Shown: positions 18,306-26,712, counted from the stretch's first letter. The stretch is 64,000 bases of DNA from Fibrobacterales bacterium (GCA_051532055.1 JAOPTX010000037.1:67180-131179), one strand, 5' to 3'. Made by a program: numbers and translations. Notes: generated by a model not told the origin, from the sequence alone.

Positions 18306-19673
18306 ATGCGTTTTTGGTTAGGTTTAATGGTCGTCGTTTCTTTGAGCTCATGTCTCAATTCTACTGATCCAGCGGAATCCTCCGACAGTTCATCAGCAGC
18401 AGTATTGAGTGGTGCCATTTCATTCACCTACACCGTACCTACAGCAAATGTCCCTTTTACCATTGACAGTATTTCCTGCACTATTAAGAATGACAATGCC
18501 GTTATTCCACTCAGTATTGTAAATCCACAGTTTAGTGGTGAGAATATACCCTTTGAGGCTTCTGCAAATGTGGGAGATAGTTTAATTATCGAAGTTGAAC
18601 TCTGGAGAGGTGATACTCTTATTGCTACAACAGATGATTCAGCAATTATAGAAGCGTCTACCACCATTATTAGTGGTTCTATCGTCAATCACCTTCCTAC
18701 TATTAACGCAGGTGCTGATCGCTCAATCTACATAAACAAAACATCAACCTTTAGAGATGCAACCGTCAATGAACCTGATGATGCCGGCTATTCCATATGG
18801 TGGAAATCTACCACTGATAGTGACTTTACGCAAAACTCCCTCACTAAGCTGTATAAAGCAATAGGAAGCGACACCATTGTACTCCTTGTTATTGATGGCT
18901 ATGGTCACCGAGTTACCGACACCCTTATTGTTTCAATTATAGACTATGACTACAGCGTAGAAACTCCGGTCTCTTCGTCATCAAGTGTCATGATAGTTTC
19001 TTCTTCAACTGTTTCGTCATCATCAATACAGTCTTCATCATCTGTGGTACTCAGTTCTTCTTCTGCGGTAGCTGTTTCAAGTTCTTCTGTGGTTATGAGT
19101 TCTTCTGTTGCCCCGGTAACCTATGCACTTACTGTTGAGGGTGGCGCTGGAAGTGGTTCTTATCAAGCGGGTGAGGCTGTTGAGATTGTTGCCAATGCGA
19201 ATGATAGTGGCGTTTGCTTTAAAGAGTGGAGTGGTGAAAATGTTCCTAACACAACCAATGATACGACTACAATTATTATGCCTGCTGCTGATAAAGCTGT
19301 GAGTGCATCTACTCATAGATGTTTTTTAATTACCTTTGATCATGATTATGGCTACTATGAAACGTACACTATGGATTGGGCTTCGAATATGTCCTTCGTT
19401 TGGCAAGATAAAAGCCCTTTGTCGCATTATCCAGATATAATTGAATGGCTCATTCCACCCATAGCATGGTATGCTGTACCAACGGTTACCTTACTTCCTA
19501 AAAATGCTTCTGGTGAATACATAACTGTCGTGTCAACTCCAATACAAGGAGCCAGTCCCGCGCTTCAAGACACCATTACAGCAAATCTCATGGTCGCTAT
19601 GCCTATTGTAATTGTAGAACCTCCGAAGTTAGAGCCAGTACTCATTATCGATACTACAGCAGTTGGCCCATAA
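18306..19673 (+). CDS. Ser-rich lipoprotein with Ig/PKD-like and InlB-B-repeat-like domains (paralog 1)
   Basis: Lipobox LSSC; INAGADRS; poly-Ser linker; YALTVEGGAGSGSYQAGEAVEIVA. Confidence 0.75.
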   Translation: MRFWLGLMVVVSLSSCLNSTDPAESSDSSSAAVLSGAISFTYTVPTANVPFTIDSISCTIKNDNAVIPLSIVNPQFSGENIPFEASANVGDSLIIEVELWRGDTLIATTDDSAIIEASTTIISGSIVNHLPTINAGADRSIYINKTSTFRDATVNEPDDAGYSIWWKSTTDSDFTQNSLTKLYKAIGSDTIVLLVIDGYGHRVTDTLIVSIIDYDYSVETPVSSSSSVMIVSSSTVSSSSIQSSSSVVLSSSSAVAVSSSSVVMSSSVAPVTYALTVEGGAGSGSYQAGEAVEIVANANDSGVCFKEWSGENVPNTTNDTTTIIMPAADKAVSASTHRCFLITFDHDYGYYETYTMDWASNMSFVWQDKSPLSHYPDIIEWLIPPIAWYAVPTVTLLPKNASGEYITVVSTPIQGASPALQDTITANLMVAMPIVIVEPPKLEPVLIIDTTAVGP

Positions 19674-19687
19674 TATTTATTCACATA

Positions 19688-19709
19688 GTGCTCTCTTAAG
19701 AGGGAGCAC
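19688..19709 (+). terminator. Hairpin between lipoprotein paralogs
   Basis: gtgctctct-taag-agggagcac. Confidence 0.5.
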
Positions 19710-19791
19710 ATATTGATGATAAGACCATCCATTAAATACCTCAATACATTATTTTTACAATACACACCATACGCACTACAAAGGGCCCCTC

Positions 19792-21168
19792 ATGAAAGTA
19801 CTGTATATCACACTCGTAATACTCCTCGCATCATGCATCAATGGAACTGATACGGCAAATGATTCGACGGACACTACATCAGATGAGACGGCACTGCTCT
19901 CTGGAACCACAGAGCTTGTCTATAGCGTCCCTACAGACGGTATACCGTTTACCATTGATAGCATATCGGTCATATTCTACAGAGGCCAAAGTATCACTCC
20001 ATTTCAAAGCCCTGCACCAGCACTCAATACTGAGTTTTTAGAATATACAACACCACTCAATATTGGTGATACTGTAACGGTCTCTGCCGCTGTCTATAGA
20101 AATGACACACTCATTGCTGATGCCCTTGACTCTATTATTATTACCGAATTAACGCTCAGTTATACGGGTGCAGTCTTAAATCACCTCCCTATTGTATCTG
20201 CCGGTGCAGACCGATCGGTCTATGTAAATAATAAAGTGGTTTTTAATACCGCTGATGTGGTGGAAATTGATGATACCGAATTAAACCTCTGGTGGAAATC
20301 TGCATCAGATAGTGTGTTTTCACTGAGTTTTTTGGATAAGTATTATACAACTGCCAGTACCGATACTATTATCTTAAAAGCGGTTGATGGGTATGGGCAT
20401 GCAGTATATGACACGCTATTGGTAATCATTAATGATTATGACATTGGTGACCTTTCATCAAGTAGTGCTGTTCCGACGGATGTAGTTAGTTCGAGTACAA
20501 CGCTTTCGTCGAGCTCAGTTATGAGTTCTTCTGCGACAATCTCATCATCTGTTCAGGTGCTTTCATCGAGCTTGGTATCTTCTTCTACCGTAATGAGTTC
20601 ATCGGAGGCTGTTGTTGTCAGTTCGAGTGTAGCTGTTGTTTCATCGAGTAGCACAGTAGTAAATTCTAGTTCTGTTGGTCCGGTGCTCTATGAATTGACG
20701 GTTGATGGTGGTACTGGGTCTGGCTTTTATGAGGCGGGAACGGTGGTTGATATTGTGGCGAATGCGAATGATACGGGGATGTGTTTTTATGAGTGGCTGG
20801 GCCATGAAGTTGCGGATGAAACAATCTCTACAACTACTTTAGTTATGCCTGCTTCGAATATTATTATTCTAAATGAGTTATTTAATTGCTGGGAATTAAC
20901 AATTTTATATAATGATTCTCAGTATACTGACACAACTGTAACGCTATCATGGGGAGTTGAATATTATGTATATTGGGAACCACCTATGGATCCTAGGCTC
21001 GGCTGGACATGCATAGCTGATTGGTCACATCCTCATAATGGAGAATCCGAAAGTGTTTATAGCCCAAATTTAAACACAGATTCTTTATTTATTCAAACGC
21101 CCTTACTCTCAAGTACATACCATCACGGCAAAGATACCATCACTAAAGTTGGTGAAAGCTGTAAGTAA
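19792..21168 (+). CDS. Ser-rich lipoprotein (paralog 2)
   Basis: Lipobox LASC; VSAGADRS; poly-Ser linker; YELTVDGGTGSGFYEAGTVVDIVA; colinear with 18306-19673. Confidence 0.75.
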   Translation: MKVLYITLVILLASCINGTDTANDSTDTTSDETALLSGTTELVYSVPTDGIPFTIDSISVIFYRGQSITPFQSPAPALNTEFLEYTTPLNIGDTVTVSAAVYRNDTLIADALDSIIITELTLSYTGAVLNHLPIVSAGADRSVYVNNKVVFNTADVVEIDDTELNLWWKSASDSVFSLSFLDKYYTTASTDTIILKAVDGYGHAVYDTLLVIINDYDIGDLSSSSAVPTDVVSSSTTLSSSSVMSSSATISSSVQVLSSSLVSSSTVMSSSEAVVVSSSVAVVSSSSTVVNSSSVGPVLYELTVDGGTGSGFYEAGTVVDIVANANDTGMCFYEWLGHEVADETISTTTLVMPASNIIILNELFNCWELTILYNDSQYTDTTVTLSWGVEYYVYWEPPMDPRLGWTCIADWSHPHNGESESVYSPNLNTDSLFIQTPLLSSTYHHGKDTITKVGESCK

Positions 21169-21342
21169 CAATAAAACAACAGTAACATTAAATCTACAGT
21201 TCCCTATTTATCTTTATAGGCCAAAAGTAAACTTTAACTACTGGCCTATGAAAATACTTGCAAGGTCGCAGATGTTGCTGGAAGGGGCGCTGCACTTATT
21301 TTTTTCTTTCTTCTTATTCCTATACTTTTTCTTTATATATAG

Positions 21343-21781
21343 TTCCCGGGCGTCGGCCCTGGAGACGACCAGATCTTTTGGGTGCCCAAAAGACTGGACC
21401 TCTAAATGCGAGAGCATTTAGCATTTGCCAAAGGCAAACCCGAAGGGTGAGGAAGCAATGTTTACTGACGAATAAAAGGCACTCTGCTGAGAGCTTTATT
21501 ACAAATGCTTTGTACATCTAGACCAGGTTACACTGCTCTGTAGCTATTGGTATTTCATTGGTTTCTTCATTTCTGAGCATAATAAATCATCGTGCCCATG
21601 GTTACGTTTTAACCTTTCAATTGTGTATGGGACAATCTGTACTACATAGTATTTTGATGCTATGCAAGGCCGCGGTTGTAATGTGAAATGTGCTTCGCAC
21701 ATGGGTAAACAATGTTCTGACGCAGAACTTTCTAAAGAATTCTGCGCCCGAACAATAGGGCTTTTGAAAGAGTCCTGATTG
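21343..21781 (+). ncRNA. Candidate large structured ncRNA (or ssDNA-structured element), family not recognised
   Basis: At least 11 consecutive hairpins, several with G.U pairs on the + strand, a GAGA tetraloop, upstream TTCTTA-N17-TATATA; no credible ORF. Confidence 0.55.
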
Positions 21782-21899
21782 CTCCATATGCACTGTTGTT
21801 TATCTTTTGTATATTGAATTACAGTCAGGTAATCGAAATTGACAGGTAATCATTTTTTACACCAGCGTATTACGCTACAATTCCTTAGAATTTTCGATT

Positions 21900-22665
21900 A
21901 TCTACCTCTAAATTACGATTCACACACCAATACAACCTTACCACGACTACTGAATCGTCTACCACTGCACTCCAATAAGTTACCACGCCACTCGAATTGT
22001 CTACCACGCCTAAACAGTTTCCCAAATACCTAAAGGACACTTCCATTATTGCTCTCGAGTAAGTTACCACGCCTCTCGAATAAGTTACCACGCCACTCGA
22101 ATAAGTTACCACGCCACTCGAATTGTCTACCACCCCTAAACAGTTTCCCAAATATCTAAAGGAACCGAGAACCACGACCTCCGAGTCATGATTCTATACC
22201 ATTGAAAAATTCTAGCACGCACTATTATTTTTTGATTCACGCCCACTAAATCGGCTACCACACGTGTTGAATCGCTACCAGTCTATACGAATCAAGATTC
22301 TATACCCCCATGCTCGGTCACAATGCGCAAATAATGTTCTACCACGAGTGAAGTGTTACCCTCCATTGCAGAATGCTTACCCCACACGCCACCAGACAAA
22401 CCTTACACGCCAAAAATGTTTTTGATTCTTTAGGGGGGAATATCACTCTCTACCTCCCAATTGAGATTCTCACTACTTATGCCCGGCCATACTGCGCAAA
22501 CAAAGGTCTACCACGAGTAAAGTTCTACCCAACATTACTGAATGGTTAGCCCACACGCCATTAGACAACCTTACCACGCGAGAAACCTTATGGATTCACT
22601 GGAATAGTAAATGCCTACGCCATACCAGTTGAGCTTCACGCCACTTATGCTTTGCTACATGCCTC
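21900..22665. repeat. Degenerate 21-bp periodic array (core (t)accacgcc)
   Basis: ccac(g)-type cores recur at 21941, 21962, 21983, 22004, 22067, 22088, 22109, 22130, 22172 ... 22342, 22384, 22405, 22511, 22553, 22574, 22636; higher-order duplications with 126- and 169-bp offsets. Confidence 0.85.
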
Positions 22666-22882
22666 AAATGCTTGCCATTTGGTCTAGCTGGAAAGGAAGT
22701 TCATTATTGCAAAAAGGAAATCGTTCTTTAATGATACGCTATAGCCCATAGGTAACCACCCGATGCTTACTAAAAGCAAGCAACAACATTATCCTAACGA
22801 CTGTAAACTTTACGTTACACCTCCAACCAGCCCAACACATTTAGTATCTTAGTCTTTTTGTTTACCTCTCATTTGAGCACCT

Positions 22883-25800
22883 ATGCTAAACCACAATTCA
22901 GATAACAAACTAGACCATAGAATATTCAACAAAGGCGCCTTTGCCGACTCCAATTCACCAATGCGCACAAGTGCTCCTTCAGGTGGAGGTGGTGGCTTTG
23001 GCGGATCTAGCGGCTCTAACAATTCCAGTGCCAGTAGCTCAAATCGTGCTTCTCAATCAGAGAGTCCCGACTCCGAGTCTGAAGAGAGCCCTGCACAGCC
23101 TCAAGAGGAGGAAGAGGAAGCGATTCAAGAACAATTGGTTACGTTAAGTAATCTTCAATTTATAGAACCTGAAACTGCGACCATGGATGGTGAAGTTGAC
23201 TATGCTTTTGATATAGAATACCTCACCGATATGAAGCCCCCAAATTATACCATTGCAGGTACCTCGACCTATAAAGGGAATGAGACCGCCCTTCCGAATC
23301 CATCACTCTCTATTTCTGGTAATTCAGGTAAGGGCACCTTTAAACTCCCTATCAATAATGATCACTATATGGATCCCGAAAAAACTCCTGATGATAAAGT
23401 GACCTATACCTATAGTGTTACCTGTGATAAAGATAGCACCAGTGCCCAATGTGACACTCCTCTAGAACTTTCTTCACCAGAACTTGCAATCACTTTAATT
23501 GAAGTACTTGACACCTGTTTTTCTAACACAAGTCCTATCCCTGTTCTTGATAGTGACGGCATGCTCCTTAAAGCCATTGCTCAGTGTTACGCACATTTAG
23601 AAGAGTGGCCCGACAAGATAATTACCGTCTATGGACATTGTAAAAGCGACACCGCTGAACCCTATCCATTATCAGAAAAAAGGGCTACTGCGATTAAAGC
23701 CCTCATAGCAAACGATTCAAGCCTATGGGGTTCACTCTATAGTGACGTGCAGGTCGAAGACTATCAACAGCTTTTGACCGGACTCGCCGATCTTTTTTGG
23801 TGGCCCTGTGACCCTTTGGGAGTTGACAACACCCTAGGAGATAATACTCAATTTGCCATTAAAGGATTTCAGCAACAGTATTCCGAGCACTATAAACCCA
23901 TCAAAGTAAGTGGCTCTATGAATACCGAGACTTGGGGCGCCTTCTGCACTGTTCTCTACACTATAGCACATACCTCATCTAAAAGCACCAAAGCTAAACC
24001 TCGTTTTTATGATACTGTTAAGGGCGTCTTCCCCTGTGGGTCTAACATCCCTATAGCAGATACGGGACAAACAGGTTTTACATCTACGACGGATGCCCGT
24101 CTTGAACTTCAGCTCCATGAATCACCCGTACCACCAACACTCCCCGCACCGAGTGATGCTATTACTGCTGCAGAGATCCCCTCCTATAATCCAGGCATTT
24201 GCGAGATGACTTTTCTTGATGCGTCTACTATAGAGCTGATTAAAGAGAGTGATGCACTCCCCTTTATTTGCGCCTACCTCCCTTGTGAAGGTTCTGATGC
24301 AGGAAATTTTATCATTATCCCAGAAGAAGATGCCGATCAATTTTTTAAAGATGCCGATGATTTTGAAATACCACTGATTGAAATAAATAAAGAACGAACA
24401 GAGCTCTTAGCTCAAGAAGAACCAGACCGAGAAAAACTTGAAGAGAACAAGAAAAAATTTACTGAACACCTAAAGATTAGTGCTAAACCTAAATTCGAAG
24501 AGCTCATTGTTATGAACCGCTTTAAGAAATTAGACAGCAAATACTATGGTAAACGTCAAATTAAATCTGATAAGATGAAAACCCATTGGAGACGCTTTAG
24601 CAGCAAACAAATTGAAAAGGAATTTGATACAGAGGTTAAGAAGATTCAGGGCGCTAAACCCAAAAAGATGAACGATTATGTGCAAGCAAAGGTAAAAAGC
24701 AACTGGTGGGCTCTTAAAAACGACAAGGGGCAGCCATACGAAGCCGTCTGGAAGGTGGGAGCAGACACTTTTGGCAAAGATAACGAACACTTTGATGCAG
24801 GCTATGAATATGCGGTTATGAGAGCTGCGGTTACCGCAGAAGTCGGTGCAGAGTTTGACCCTAAAGAGATGAAGCTCTCCGTATCAGCCAAAGGAGAGGC
24901 TACTGCATCTCTCATAGAAGGCAAGGTATATTTTAATGTCTCATTTCCGGATGAAAAGGGTTTCAACCTCATAGACACCCTCCATAAAGCACTTGATGAC
25001 TCATATAAAGAAAAGGGTACCTATGACCCAGATAAGAGCAAGAATTTTGTTAAACGCGATGAGACCCTTTACCTTCTTATAAAACTGGAAGCAAGTCTCT
25101 ATGGGTTTGTAGGTGCAAATGCAGCAATCTCACTCCCTGATGTGAATTTAAATTTTGCCAACGTGACGTCGACCGATGATAAGCCCAAAGGGCGTCTTGC
25201 ATCAGGAGACGCACCCAAAGCATGTGCAACCGTTGGCGTTGAAGCCTTTGCTGGCGCCCAGGGTACTATTGATTTTACTACACAACTTAATTGGAGTAAG
25301 ACATTAGGCGGAACATTTAAGAATATTTGTAAGGCCGGTGGTGCACTTACCGGTCGTGCCGGAATTGGTGTACAGGCCTTTGCAAAGTTTAGTTATGAAA
25401 ACGGTAAGATCGTTTTTACTGCCAAAGCAAACCTGGTTGTTGGACTTGGTGGTGGCGGTGCTCTTATATATGAGCTTAATTTTAATGAAGGCATTAAAAT
25501 GATCTCACATCTCATGAGATGTTTTAATTACCATAATGCTTTTGAAATTGCTGATGACTTGTTTGAATTGTATCTTAAAGCCATATTTATCCAAGTATAT
25601 GGTTTAGCTAAAGGTGTTGAGTTAGTGGTCGATACAGTAGAAGAATGGTTTGATGACCTTTTTGATAGTGACTTAAATGAACGAATTCAAAAACTTACTA
25701 CAACCCCAATCATTCTGCACCAAGCACCTCCTGAAATACTGGGTCCCATTATTGGTGAAATTATCAACAGAAAAGCCCATAGTAGTCAAGATTATGAAAA

Positions 25801-26050
25801 TATTTTATCTATGCTAGAACAATCTAAAGCCGGTTTAATCCCTGGTACAAAGAACCACGAACTTGGTTGGATTATAAGATATTCTTGTATAAAGGATGGA
25901 TTTTGGAAGGATACAACTGCCGATATAATTAAAAAGGATGACGCTTCTAGAATCAAATATCTACAAGAAGGTAACAATAATATTAAAATGTATTTTTCCC
26001 ACTCATCAGTGACCACAACACAGAAAACCAGACTTGAGGCATTATTATGA
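22883..26050 (+). CDS. Large putative polymorphic effector: low-complexity N-terminus, OmpA-like/peptidoglycan-binding region, Gly/Ala-rich C-terminal domain
   Basis: TVYGH..LSEKRATAI (OmpA-like), GVDNTLGDNTQFAIKGFQQQY (PG-binding-like), GRAGIG..LVVGLGGGG; overlaps the next gene by 4 bp. Confidence 0.6.
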   Translation: MLNHNSDNKLDHRIFNKGAFADSNSPMRTSAPSGGGGGFGGSSGSNNSSASSSNRASQSESPDSESEESPAQPQEEEEEAIQEQLVTLSNLQFIEPETATMDGEVDYAFDIEYLTDMKPPNYTIAGTSTYKGNETALPNPSLSISGNSGKGTFKLPINNDHYMDPEKTPDDKVTYTYSVTCDKDSTSAQCDTPLELSSPELAITLIEVLDTCFSNTSPIPVLDSDGMLLKAIAQCYAHLEEWPDKIITVYGHCKSDTAEPYPLSEKRATAIKALIANDSSLWGSLYSDVQVEDYQQLLTGLADLFWWPCDPLGVDNTLGDNTQFAIKGFQQQYSEHYKPIKVSGSMNTETWGAFCTVLYTIAHTSSKSTKAKPRFYDTVKGVFPCGSNIPIADTGQTGFTSTTDARLELQLHESPVPPTLPAPSDAITAAEIPSYNPGICEMTFLDASTIELIKESDALPFICAYLPCEGSDAGNFIIIPEEDADQFFKDADDFEIPLIEINKERTELLAQEEPDREKLEENKKKFTEHLKISAKPKFEELIVMNRFKKLDSKYYGKRQIKSDKMKTHWRRFSSKQIEKEFDTEVKKIQGAKPKKMNDYVQAKVKSNWWALKNDKGQPYEAVWKVGADTFGKDNEHFDAGYEYAVMRAAVTAEVGAEFDPKEMKLSVSAKGEATASLIEGKVYFNVSFPDEKGFNLIDTLHKALDDSYKEKGTYDPDKSKNFVKRDETLYLLIKLEASLYGFVGANAAISLPDVNLNFANVTSTDDKPKGRLASGDAPKACATVGVEAFAGAQGTIDFTTQLNWSKTLGGTFKNICKAGGALTGRAGIGVQAFAKFSYENGKIVFTAKANLVVGLGGGGALIYELNFNEGIKMISHLMRCFNYHNAFEIADDLFELYLKAIFIQVYGLAKGVELVVDTVEEWFDDLFDSDLNERIQKLTTTPIILHQAPPEILGPIIGEIINRKAHSSQDYENILSMLEQSKAGLIPGTKNHELGWIIRYSCIKDGFWKDTTADIIKKDDASRIKYLQEGNNNIKMYFSHSSVTTTQKTRLEALL

Positions 26051-26712
26051 ATCTAATCATTTTCATTCTATTCATTTCATTTACATTTTTATCAGCCAAA
26101 ACTGATACAACATTTTTTTCAAATGGCAAAATTGAAAGTATCATTCATTTTGATCAAAATAATCAAGAAAATGGAACATCTTTGTTTTGGAATGCACACG
26201 GAACCCTCATCCATAAACGAGAGCTCAAAAATGGAAAGACGAATGGAGTATTTGCAAATTACTATGACACAGGAAAGACAAGCCGTGAAGAACACTATAC
26301 AATGGGAAAACTAGATGGCTGGTCAATATCATGGGATGAGCAAAGCCATACTAAAGACAGCACTCTTTATATAGATGGAAACAGAGTAGAAGAGTTTCTT
26401 TTCTACCCTTCTACAAAACAAATCAATTCACACACACTCTTTGTACACAAGAATTCTTATTCGTATATAACTATGCAAGACCGATTTCTTAAAAGTGGAG
26501 AAATACTGAGCCAAATTCGCAGTGGTAATGGTATTGAAAAATATAAACGTAACAATGAAACAAAACTCAGAAATGTAAAGCTCTTTAAAGGTGGAAAAAA
26601 AGAAGGAAAATCAATACGAGACAAATCTCATCCTCTATTTAACCTAAATCCACTCCCCAAGAAAGATATCCTTCCGTGGGATATAGAGAAGTATGGGCAT
26701 TTAAAAAATTAA
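26047..26712 (+). CDS. Exported MORN-variant repeat (YwqK-like) protein, putative immunity protein
   Basis: Signal peptide; repeats FFSNGKI, NGKTNGVFANYYDTGK, GKLDGWSISWDEQ; ATGA coupling to the upstream gene. Confidence 0.75.
   Translation: MNLIIFILFISFTFLSAKTDTTFFSNGKIESIIHFDQNNQENGTSLFWNAHGTLIHKRELKNGKTNGVFANYYDTGKTSREEHYTMGKLDGWSISWDEQSHTKDSTLYIDGNRVEEFLFYPSTKQINSHTLFVHKNSYSYITMQDRFLKSGEILSQIRSGNGIEKYKRNNETKLRNVKLFKGGKKEGKSIRDKSHPLFNLNPLPKKDILPWDIEKYGHLKN

Follow-up and report, generated by a model that had tools for sequence, protein, structure and literature searches.

A putative, lineage-restricted family of structured RNAs with a pseudoknotted domain in two genomes of uncultured marine Fibrobacterales

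Described systems closest to the element

The FopS/GibS RNAs of Bacteroides thetaiotaomicron form a 14-member paralogous family of small RNAs, whose genes are intergenic, antisense, or 3'-UTR-derived and whose copy number varies by species; these RNAs are reported to be ~65-70 nt long, to be transcribed from canonical promoters, and to base-pair with susC mRNAs through a 5' seed (PMC11697453). The element described here is likewise a multi-copy non-coding family scattered in the genome, found in the same superphylum and with a species-dependent copy number. It differs in its ~320-nt core, its long-range helices and its pseudoknot, as well as in having no canonical promoter, no sequence likeness to FopS, and no complementary targets for its conserved block.

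Dispersed repeats such as BOX of Streptococcus pneumoniae, ERIC/IRU, and REP/BIME-REPIN are found in tens to hundreds of copies of 35-200 nt, made mainly of local palindromes. BOX elements have a modular build in which some internal units are optional; such repeats also include truncated copies and mosaics, and REPINs are accompanied by a RAYT (Y1) transposase. The present element resembles these repeats in being non-coding, intergenic, multi-copy, and hairpin-rich, but differs from them by its 8-15 copies, its covarying 190-nt domain with a pseudoknot, and its retention at orthologous positions. Likewise, the unit size of REP/BIME-REPIN, an imperfect palindrome of ~20-40 nt, is not matched by a unit of ~320 nt present in 8 and 14 copies.

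Large bacterial RNAs with a complex fold are rare, and several of them are ribozymes, guide RNAs, or self-assembling particles. HEARO (the IscB omega RNA), GOLLD, ROOL, OLE, and raiA exceed 300 nt and combine multiple helices with pseudoknots and optional peripheral domains; HEARO is multi-copy and located beside an IscB gene, its relatives being guide RNAs of TnpB/IscB. Our element is similarly longer than 300 nt, pseudoknotted, and equipped with optional peripheral modules. No Rfam match to any of these five families was found in the stretch analysed and, unlike for HEARO, there is no TnpB-type domain in either genome and no protein gene linked to the copies. Finally, hok/sok loci are present in several chromosomal copies, which decay, and produce a highly folded transcript of ~400 nt with long-range pairing between its 5' and 3' parts. 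All of these traits have a counterpart here (several chromosomal copies, a highly folded unit of ~400 nt, long-range pairing, decay of copies), except that the element has no conserved small hydrophobic frame, and the one frame that recurs is shifted between copies.

In a search of the literature on structured or small RNAs and intergenic repeats of Fibrobacter and Fibrobacterales, nothing resembled the element. Fibro-purF was the sole Fibrobacter RNA motif turned up by this search (PMC7668255), which also retrieved general surveys of RNA motifs (PMC2864571, PMC5737381).

Locus, distribution and anatomy of the element

The window, which is the whole 64,000-nt stretch of DNA analysed (contig C37:67180-131179), comes from a genome of 5.17 Mb in 181 contigs, named G000 here; G001 is the sole congeneric genome, a Fibrobacterales MAG. 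The region under study (21343-21781) lies inside a 1.7-kb gap (21169-22882) without long reading frames. A previous reading, based on the sequence alone (the sequence-only reading), had taken this region for a single ~440-nt non-coding RNA. It is indeed structured, non-coding, and outside Rfam; however, it is not a lone RNA, but a member of a dispersed multi-copy family.

Rfam 15 gave no match at gathering score across the whole 64-kb window. Its E-value mode, applied to 21150-22900, returned three chance-level hits (E 1.2-4.2) to plant miRNA/snoRNA models on the - strand, and thus no strong hit. ARAGORN found no tRNA or tmRNA gene in the window, and hence no cloverleaf in a 74-nt, three-hairpin insert described below.

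When the gap was compared by BLAST with its own genome, positions 21326-21399 and 21474-21753 were found to be repeated on other G000 contigs. Both pieces are contiguous in the other G000 copies, so that 21400-21473 is an insertion which, in this genome, distinguishes the window copy. Seven full copies were identified in G000 with an nhmmer core profile (contigs C37, C115, C47, C26, C57, C8, and C92; E-values from 1e-56 to 2e-96), together with two weak scraps and one partial or mini copy (C49). R1, a covariance model built for the 5' domain (113 positions, 18 pairs, 17 sequences used), detected 8 copies in G000 and 14 in G001, which thus has at least 14.

Among 151 genomes of the order Fibrobacterales, R1 matched these two (8 and 14 matches, respectively) and gave no match in the other 149; in a phylum-wide sample of 151 Fibrobacterota genomes, G000 alone was positive and the 150 others had no match. 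Both genome searches were run with stricter filters, which are able to lose weak matches. An exact degenerate pattern, searched in one genome per GTDB species, retrieved 11 stretches, nine of them in the congeneric MAG; we read the remaining two (Anaerolineaceae and Iodobacter) as probable chance matches. A first pattern scan of JGI metagenome contigs produced no match, and the single TARA contig returned by a second metagenome scan was dismissed as a chance match, being coding-looking sequence with neither P1 nor P2. With the core as BLAST query, 39 further Fibrobacterales genomes yielded just one weak match of 33 nt, and there was no match to the element in phage and plasmid collections. The element has therefore been found so far in one genus of uncultured marine Fibrobacterales only.

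From 5' to 3', the unit is composed of a C/T-rich leader, three hairpins (P1, P2, and P3), a ~190-nt domain closed by helix P4 and containing P5 and P6, a terminal hairpin, and the hairpin H2. This anatomy was drawn from alignment A1, which comprises 17 of the ~22 copies, and from separate alignments of the tail and upstream regions. Truncated or rearranged copies (G1_C64, G1_C17, G1_C11b, and G1_C63) and mini copies (G0_C49 and G1_C15) were left out of A1. The features in the window are as follows.

5' of the gap, + strand: gene for a 458-aa protein with a Flg_new_2 domain
21295..21342, + strand: polypyrimidine leader ending in TATAG, present in all copies (length ~20-70 nt)
21343..21364, + strand: P1 hairpin; 92.9% of cells paired, two-sided changes in four of the five pairs counted
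21369..21397, + strand: P2 hairpin; 11 pairs, 98.9% paired, three changing on both sides
21400..21473, + strand: optional 74-nt insert, with hairpins at 21402-21, 21423-38, and 21439-47 plus a tail
21479..21494, + strand: P3, a small hairpin with a CUC/GAG core; three pairs, 100% paired
21497..21508, + strand: 5' strand of P4, TATTACAAATGC, within the most conserved sequence block of the family
21525..21530, + strand: 5' strand of P5, AGGTTA
21597..21602, + strand: 5' strand of P6, CATGGT
21610..21615, + strand: 3' strand of P5, TAACCT
21659..21664, + strand: 3' strand of P6, GCTATG
21672..21683, + strand: 3' strand of P4, GCGGTTGTAATG, closing the ~190-nt domain
21688..21702, + strand: terminal triloop hairpin ATGTGC-TTC-GCACAT, end of the conserved core
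21714..21753, + strand: H2, a palindromic hairpin common to most copies
21757..21841, + strand: separate repeated module with a hairpin at 21757-76, outside the family core
3' of the gap, + strand: gene for a 1055-aa protein with no Pfam match

The conserved core is ~320 nt long, and the window copy reaches ~395 nt with its insert and H2. Two optional inserts were observed. One, of ~45 nt, sits inside the P1 loop of four copies (G0_C26, G1_C89, G1_C56, and G1_C44a). The other is the 74-nt insert, which follows P2 at exactly the same position in five copies (the window copy, G1_C56, G1_C42, G1_C64, and G1_C17), is absent from the others and, within G000, is confined to the window copy. A 74-nt "skip" joint in the DNA run X1 is most simply explained by another copy without the insert. 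We also considered the two inserts as high-copy mini-repeats in G000, where each proved to have one full copy and one partial match.

The lower stem of P2 is almost invariant and its tip covaries; it is followed by an invariant GGA(C/T)-AAAA linker. In most copies, sequence conservation runs beyond the terminal hairpin into H2, which may not suit an IS200/IS605 omega RNA or PATE, where a conserved scaffold stops at the transposon boundary and gives way to a variable guide. The 21757-21841 module was also found at the orthologous locus and in a few other places. Some copies depart from this plan: the last sub-domain is tandemly duplicated in G1_C61, G1_C44b, G1_C89, and G1_C11a, and the mini copy G0_C49 keeps P1, P2, the terminal hairpin, and H2, the large domain being absent. 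The 440 nt initially flagged are thus a mosaic, in which a ~320-nt core is combined with an optional insert, a palindromic hairpin that resembles a terminator, and the first part of another module. Other small repeats are intermixed with the element.

Covariation and strand of the fold

The + strand of the region had a predicted folding energy of -137.2 kcal/mol, versus -115.7 ± 6.3 kcal/mol for dinucleotide shuffles (z = -3.43), and none of the 100 shuffles folded as well. The - strand reached a z-score of -3.34; this near-equal value means that the z-score alone names no strand. The minimum free energy (MFE) fold of the + strand contained the stems listed in the sequence-only reading at 21343-64, 21369-97, 21402-21, ~21424-38, 21438-48, 21522-51, and 21757-76. 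Three inverted repeats were detected (21374-82/21385-93, 21402-09/21414-21, and 21713-27/21740-54), the second being the hairpin with the GAGA loop and the third the stem noted at 21713-54; the stem at 21688-702 was also recovered, as ATGTGC-TTC-GCACAT. On the other hand, the junction in which cct/agg pairing was thought to close three small hairpins was absent from the MFE fold, and the five copies of the insert are nearly identical. As for the stems placed in the middle of the region (21453-510, 21522-51, 21595-631, and 21645-64), 21522-51 is part of the MFE fold, but none of the four is conserved, and the long-range helices P4, P5, and P6 were found instead.

RNAalifold proposed 37 pairs, 18 of which change on both sides. 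A 40-pair model applied to A1 formed standard pairs in 93.6% of 669 cells, and this value fell to 33.7-48.1% when the 3' partners were slid by 1-3 columns. Seventeen of the 40 pairs change on both sides, compared with a mean of 7.3 in shuffled alignments, none of the 500 shuffles reaching 17; the homologues thus exhibit the covariation that the initial reading had called for. Over five measures, four were never reached by the 500 shuffles, and the fifth, further pair types, was reached by 40 of them. The shuffle control disregards relatedness, and significance is therefore overstated for related sequences; moreover, every aligned copy comes from one of two related genomes, so that the compensatory events that are independent are few. 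Pairing is kept in the diverged orthologues C57 and G1_C45, whose cores are just 64% identical.

Among individual helices, P3 exhibits a C-G to U-A swap in 7 of the 17 copies. P4 consists of 11 pairs (92.9-94.7% paired), five to six of which change on both sides, with a conserved U.G wobble that is replaced by G.U in three copies. P5 (AGGUUA/UAACCU) and P6 (CAUGGU/GCUAUG) have six pairs each, which are 95.8% and 83.3% paired, respectively, with three pairs changing on both sides in either helix. Both were first indicated by a column-pair scan and by RNAalifold, and the interior of the domain has been modelled in part. Because P6 crosses P5, the two form a pseudoknot. P4, P5, and P6 were also evaluated together on A3, a domain alignment of 16 sequences to which G1_C63 was added and from which G0_C92 (3' half replaced) and G1_C89 (98% identical to G1_C44b) were omitted: 92.0% of cells were paired and two-sided changes were seen in 11 of the 23 pairs, a number that none of the 500 shuffles reached. 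The terminal hairpin is just 73% paired in A1, as this alignment misplaces the four copies whose 3' domain is duplicated.

Several other pairings were considered and rejected. The local hairpin that competes with P5, UGUACAUCUG/CAGGUUACA, and the hairpin at 21522-51, taken as a conserved helix, each had no pair changed on both sides. A rival CUGUACC/GGUGUAG helix was paired in 59.8% of cells, and a 10-nt complementarity between 21456-65 and 21705-14 is not kept in G1_C42.

Overall, the helices are held by compensatory changes, beyond what is seen in shuffled and slid controls. That a single-stranded fold is under selection, including two long-range helices and a pseudoknot, is firm.

G.U cells pair on the + strand only, and A.C cells would be G.U on the - strand. 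The 40-pair model included 24 G.U cells versus 13 A.C cells, so the wobble preference for the + strand remarked upon previously does exist; the bias is moderate, however, as 15 of the 24 G.U cells come from the single conserved P4 wobble, without which the count is 9 G.U versus 13 A.C. P6 contains three wobble-rich pairs, which are G.U in 12, 6, and 12 of the 16 rows, respectively; being often or mostly G.U, these pairs form on the + strand only. In addition, the + strand folds better in 15 of the 17 copies, with a mean difference of -7.3 kcal/mol. The terminal hairpin, which on the - strand is a GNA triloop of a kind unusually stable as DNA, speaks for the opposite strand. On balance, we take the + strand as likely.

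Copy history, expression signals and possible function

We give about an even chance to the interpretation that the stretch belongs, as one putative gene copy, to a lineage-restricted family of structured RNAs not described before, encoded on the + strand and acting in trans. What is firm in this interpretation is that the family exists, how it folds, and that it is new; the proposed function is a guess. The element would act as a folded + strand RNA, arising either through a non-canonical promoter within the C/T-rich leader or through the processing of read-through transcripts. We infer that this RNA might work in trans, as a protein-binding scaffold or as a sequestering RNA. Recognition, probably by a protein, could then take place at the surface formed by the near-invariant P2 stem with the GGAC-AAAA linker, with the pseudoknotted domain as the functional body, and the multiple gene copies would supply dosage or variants. 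The family may gain copies through segmental and inverted duplications centred on H2 and lose them by deletion. A bolder version, which we put forward tentatively and would sooner doubt than defend, is that of a new class of bacterial RNA from a marine, cellulose-degrading lineage: longer than 300 nt, pseudoknotted, with swappable peripheral domains and 8-15 gene copies per genome, serving as an RNP scaffold or ribozyme and driven from the C/T-rich leader by a type of promoter that would be new to Fibrobacterota.

The strongest competitor, possible though doubtful, is a selfish or structural dispersed repeat (REP/BIME, ERIC, or BOX-like, or a non-autonomous mobile element) without a dedicated cellular RNA function, whose spread would require the fold in an intermediate of single-stranded DNA or RNA, unless the fold is merely tolerated. 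Its restriction to one lineage is consistent with such a repeat, as are the variable copy number (8 versus at least 14), the modular make-up with optional 45-nt and 74-nt inserts, and the presence of small repeats nearby. So is the terminal hairpin which, read on the - strand, is a GNA mini-hairpin of the GCGAAGC type, 12 of the 17 aligned copies having GAA or GGA as its loop; mini-hairpins of this type are unusually stable as DNA. A copy number of 8-15 is low for such repeats, however, and we know of no described REP, ERIC, or BOX element that requires long-range helices and a pseudoknot, such as those that covary here over ~190 nt.

The machinery of a mobile element was searched for around the copies. 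The neighbours are unrelated housekeeping or CAZyme genes and include cellulases, a radical SAM enzyme, DUF1015, TraB/GumN, UbiE, a DEAD helicase, a response regulator, and a Fic-like protein. No transposase, integrase, or reverse transcriptase was found beside the copies among 25 neighbour proteins scanned. The TnpB domain PF07282 had no match in G000 or G001, and no TnpB/IscB-type gene was present among the neighbours. The Y1 transposase (RAYT, PF01797) was also absent from both genomes, in a search for which the control was positive in 6 of 14 named genomes. RVT_1 had three matches in G000, none near any copy (including C39:2805-4665 and C57:11049-11423), and no match in G001, so that the adjacent reverse transcriptase of a retron or group II intron is lacking. 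No terminal inverted repeats of the MITE kind join the two ends of the window copy; where other copies do show inverted repeats, these are what is left of a second copy in convergent orientation. All of these results argue against a selfish repeat.

The positions of the copies bear on the same alternative. Five loci have orthologous flanks in the two species (the window with G1_C56, C57 with G1_C45, C26 with G1_C61, C8 with G1_C63, and C115 with G1_C44a), with a flank identity of 72-91%. A sixth pair, C92 with G1_C28, was assigned by closest core identity and a like neighbour only, the coding flank of G1_C28 mapping to G000 contig C103 and not to C92. By sequence comparison, at least six loci thus appear to be orthologous in G000 and G001 in spite of the divergence of their flanking genes (72-92% identity), which is not what a spreading repeat would suggest. 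Core identity ranged from 64 to 93% in the four orthologue pairs of A1 (window/G1_C56, C57/G1_C45, C26/G1_C61, and C115/G1_C44a), and some non-orthologous copies were 84-86% alike, a pattern that suggests uneven rates or exchange between copies.

Where one species is without a copy, a remnant was observed at the orthologous site. One of these remnants in G000 (C110:849-986) retains the leader and P1 only, followed by a (CAAA)n run, and the other (C3:61229-61289) is a 3' scrap. Truncated remnants of this kind are known among selfish repeats, but the species differences that could be resolved look like deletions leaving remnants and not like insertions: no clean empty site, which could reveal a target-site duplication, was seen, and the two informative sites hold deletion remnants. 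The G1_C42 locus carries two tail-to-tail copies that have one H2 in common, followed by a T-run, and the "GTGCGAAGCACATTACA" stretch located 3' of several copies is the remnant of a convergent partner copy. Moreover, a PLD-like gene on the opposite strand, cut at three different points, directly adjoins five copies with its 3' part; an intact paralogue of this gene is present at C3:136268-137314. Like the differences in copy number, the remnants, and the small repeats, the tail-to-tail pairs around a palindromic H2 and the PLD-like junctions would also be expected of a selfish repeat. In our reading, segmental or inverted duplication gave rise to the copies and deletion removed some of them, and nothing points to recent transposition.

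Expression signals were compared with those of other G000 genes. Many G000 tRNA genes are preceded by a promoter of the form TTGACA, ~17 nt, TAnnTTTG. In the 20 leaders checked, no box resembling TAnnTTTG occurred together with a good -35 where the tRNA genes have theirs. The TTCTTA (21311-16) and TATATA (21334-39) boxes, separated by 17 nt, that had been put forward upstream of P1 are present in the window, but are not conserved in the copies and do not resemble TTGACA-N17-TAnnTTTG. A T-run 3' of H2 is absent from the window copy and most others and present at G1_C42, whereas other terminators seen in G000 do carry one. The missing tRNA-type promoter and, mostly, T-run weigh against an RNA gene and fit a selfish repeat.

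A metatranscriptome from the same sample as the DNA run X1 was also searched; it is one small run (X2, 11.5 million letters), available as contigs, which drop repeats, and none of these contigs lay on the element. Over 19500-24500, its contigs covered 19500-20024, 20652-20864, 21138-21288, and 23786-23936, as far as contigs of a small run can tell.

A cis-acting RNA module at gene ends, which would be co-transcribed with the upstream gene and stabilise, process, or terminate its transcript, appears unlikely. The upstream gene lies on the same strand at four of the seven full G000 copies and at six copies in G001 (G1_C13, G1_C61, G1_C28, G1_C45, G1_C11b, and G1_C56), and it ends ~20 nt (G1_C13) or ~12 nt (G1_C28) before the leader, which leaves no room for a separate terminator; H2, as a strong palindromic hairpin, would also suit this function. 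The other three full G000 copies (C115, C47, and C8) and several in G001 are, however, divergent from the upstream gene, so that orientation looks random. Furthermore, at G0_C57 and G0_C49, the upstream gene has its own canonical hairpin-plus-T-run terminator just before the leader, and these two copies would therefore need a start signal of their own in the C/T-rich tract. A pseudoknotted domain of 190 nt also far exceeds the need of an end-protecting hairpin.

A small protein encoded on the - strand, such as a type I toxin with a highly folded mRNA, is very improbable: an ATG-started frame (MYKAFVM.LSA), whose start lies in the family's most conserved block, runs on for 37-77 codons without a stop in most copies, but beyond about residue 11 it continues in three reading frames among the copies, owing to 1-2-nt indels and the 74-nt insert, with unrelated and non-hydrophobic products, and the substitutions are compensatory for base pairing. 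The element is non-coding.

Returning to an RNA that acts in trans, base-pairing targets of the conserved 25-nt block were limited to scattered 12-13-mers, with no long one; ~17 such sites were found versus roughly 9 expected in this AT-rich genome. A CsrB-like sponge was also considered and rejected, with only four GGA motifs counted by eye in the 440 nt and no enrichment.

If the element is an RNA family, its covarying pseudoknotted domain, fixed-place modules, and many copies with no partner gene would make it a fresh case; if it is a selfish repeat, it shows that long-range pseudoknotted folds can occur in such repeats and that these can be retained at orthologous sites. In both cases, intergenic DNA left blank by annotation pipelines is now marked in both genomes, within a narrow reach of two uncultured genomes of one genus. 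Lastly, a sigma-54-like TGG-N10-TGC motif at 21277-21293 was noticed by eye in the window, in its orthologue, and in G0_C47, and is not general to the family.

Promoter-like signals

A sigma-54-like motif with GG-N10-GC spacing (TGGAAG-N5-CTGCA, 21277-21293) was recognized by eye 50 nt upstream of P1, the first hairpin of the RNA-like element. By the same visual inspection, it was also found at the orthologous locus of the congeneric MAG G001 (G1_C56; TGGAAT-N5-TTGCA) and at G0_C47, another copy in the source genome G000, and was absent from the remaining copies. In the G000 genome, the promoters of many tRNA genes were characterized by a sigma-70-like -35 box, TTGACA, followed after ~17 nt by a Bacteroidota-type -7 box, TAnnTTTG; this consensus is useful for annotating the lineage.

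The P1 insert, a remnant site and the PLD-like gene

The 45-nt insert present in the P1 loop of some copies has as its core a separate small motif, CTGGTCGC-hairpin-GCTGCTCG, whose inner stem covaries. This motif was also observed in tandem arrays with a period of 41-42 nt, with three units on C30 and three downstream of G1_C11a, a G001 copy. A gene pair with several paralogues, encoding a 324-aa protein and a 348-aa PLD-like protein, was identified as well.

Occurrences of the small motif and of the gene pair (G000 contigs and locus handles)
C30:40670-40790, C115:8405, C26:9967; L020, about 1230-1370: small motif
C3:136268-138288; C115:8919-9118; L010, L012, L018, L020: 324-aa/PLD-like gene pair and related places

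Five copies of the RNA-like element are adjoined by 3' fragments of the PLD-like gene, with three different cut points. At C110:849-986 of G000, only the leader (the C/T-rich tract upstream of P1) and P1 are retained, including a C-run and an insert of the 45-nt type, and a (CAAA)n microsatellite follows; at the matching site of the congener, two copies lie tail-to-tail.

Repeats and protein genes flanking the window copy

Hairpin 21757-76 lies at the start of a further repeated module (21761-21841), which occurs elsewhere in G000 at C3:138830-138907; G001 has it at five sites, one of them 470 nt downstream of G1_C11a. Iteron-like arrays, which may represent protein-binding sites ahead of the gene for a 1055-aa protein, were observed between the element and this gene.

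Repeats downstream of the element (window)
21938-22133, 22310-22428, 22479-22597: iteron-like arrays, made up of a TACCACGCCACTCGAATAAGT-like unit of 21 nt repeated in tandem (3.3 copies, 95% match) and the two internal duplications below
21938-22037 and 22064-22163: 100-nt internal duplication
22310-22428 and 22479-22597: 120-nt internal duplication

Part of 22513-22691 was also found on G000 contigs C39 and C4. The 1055-aa protein (22883-26050) has a low-complexity, Ser/Gly/Glu-rich N-terminus and gave no match in Pfam; the end of its gene shares 4 nt with the beginning of the next gene (26047-26712), which encodes a 221-aa protein whose sole match was a weak MORN_2 repeat, under the Pfam cut-off. 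Two adjacent paralogous proteins of ~455 aa each (18306-19673 and 19792-21168) each contain one divergent InlB B-repeat (Flg_new_2) domain, as well as Ser-rich linkers.
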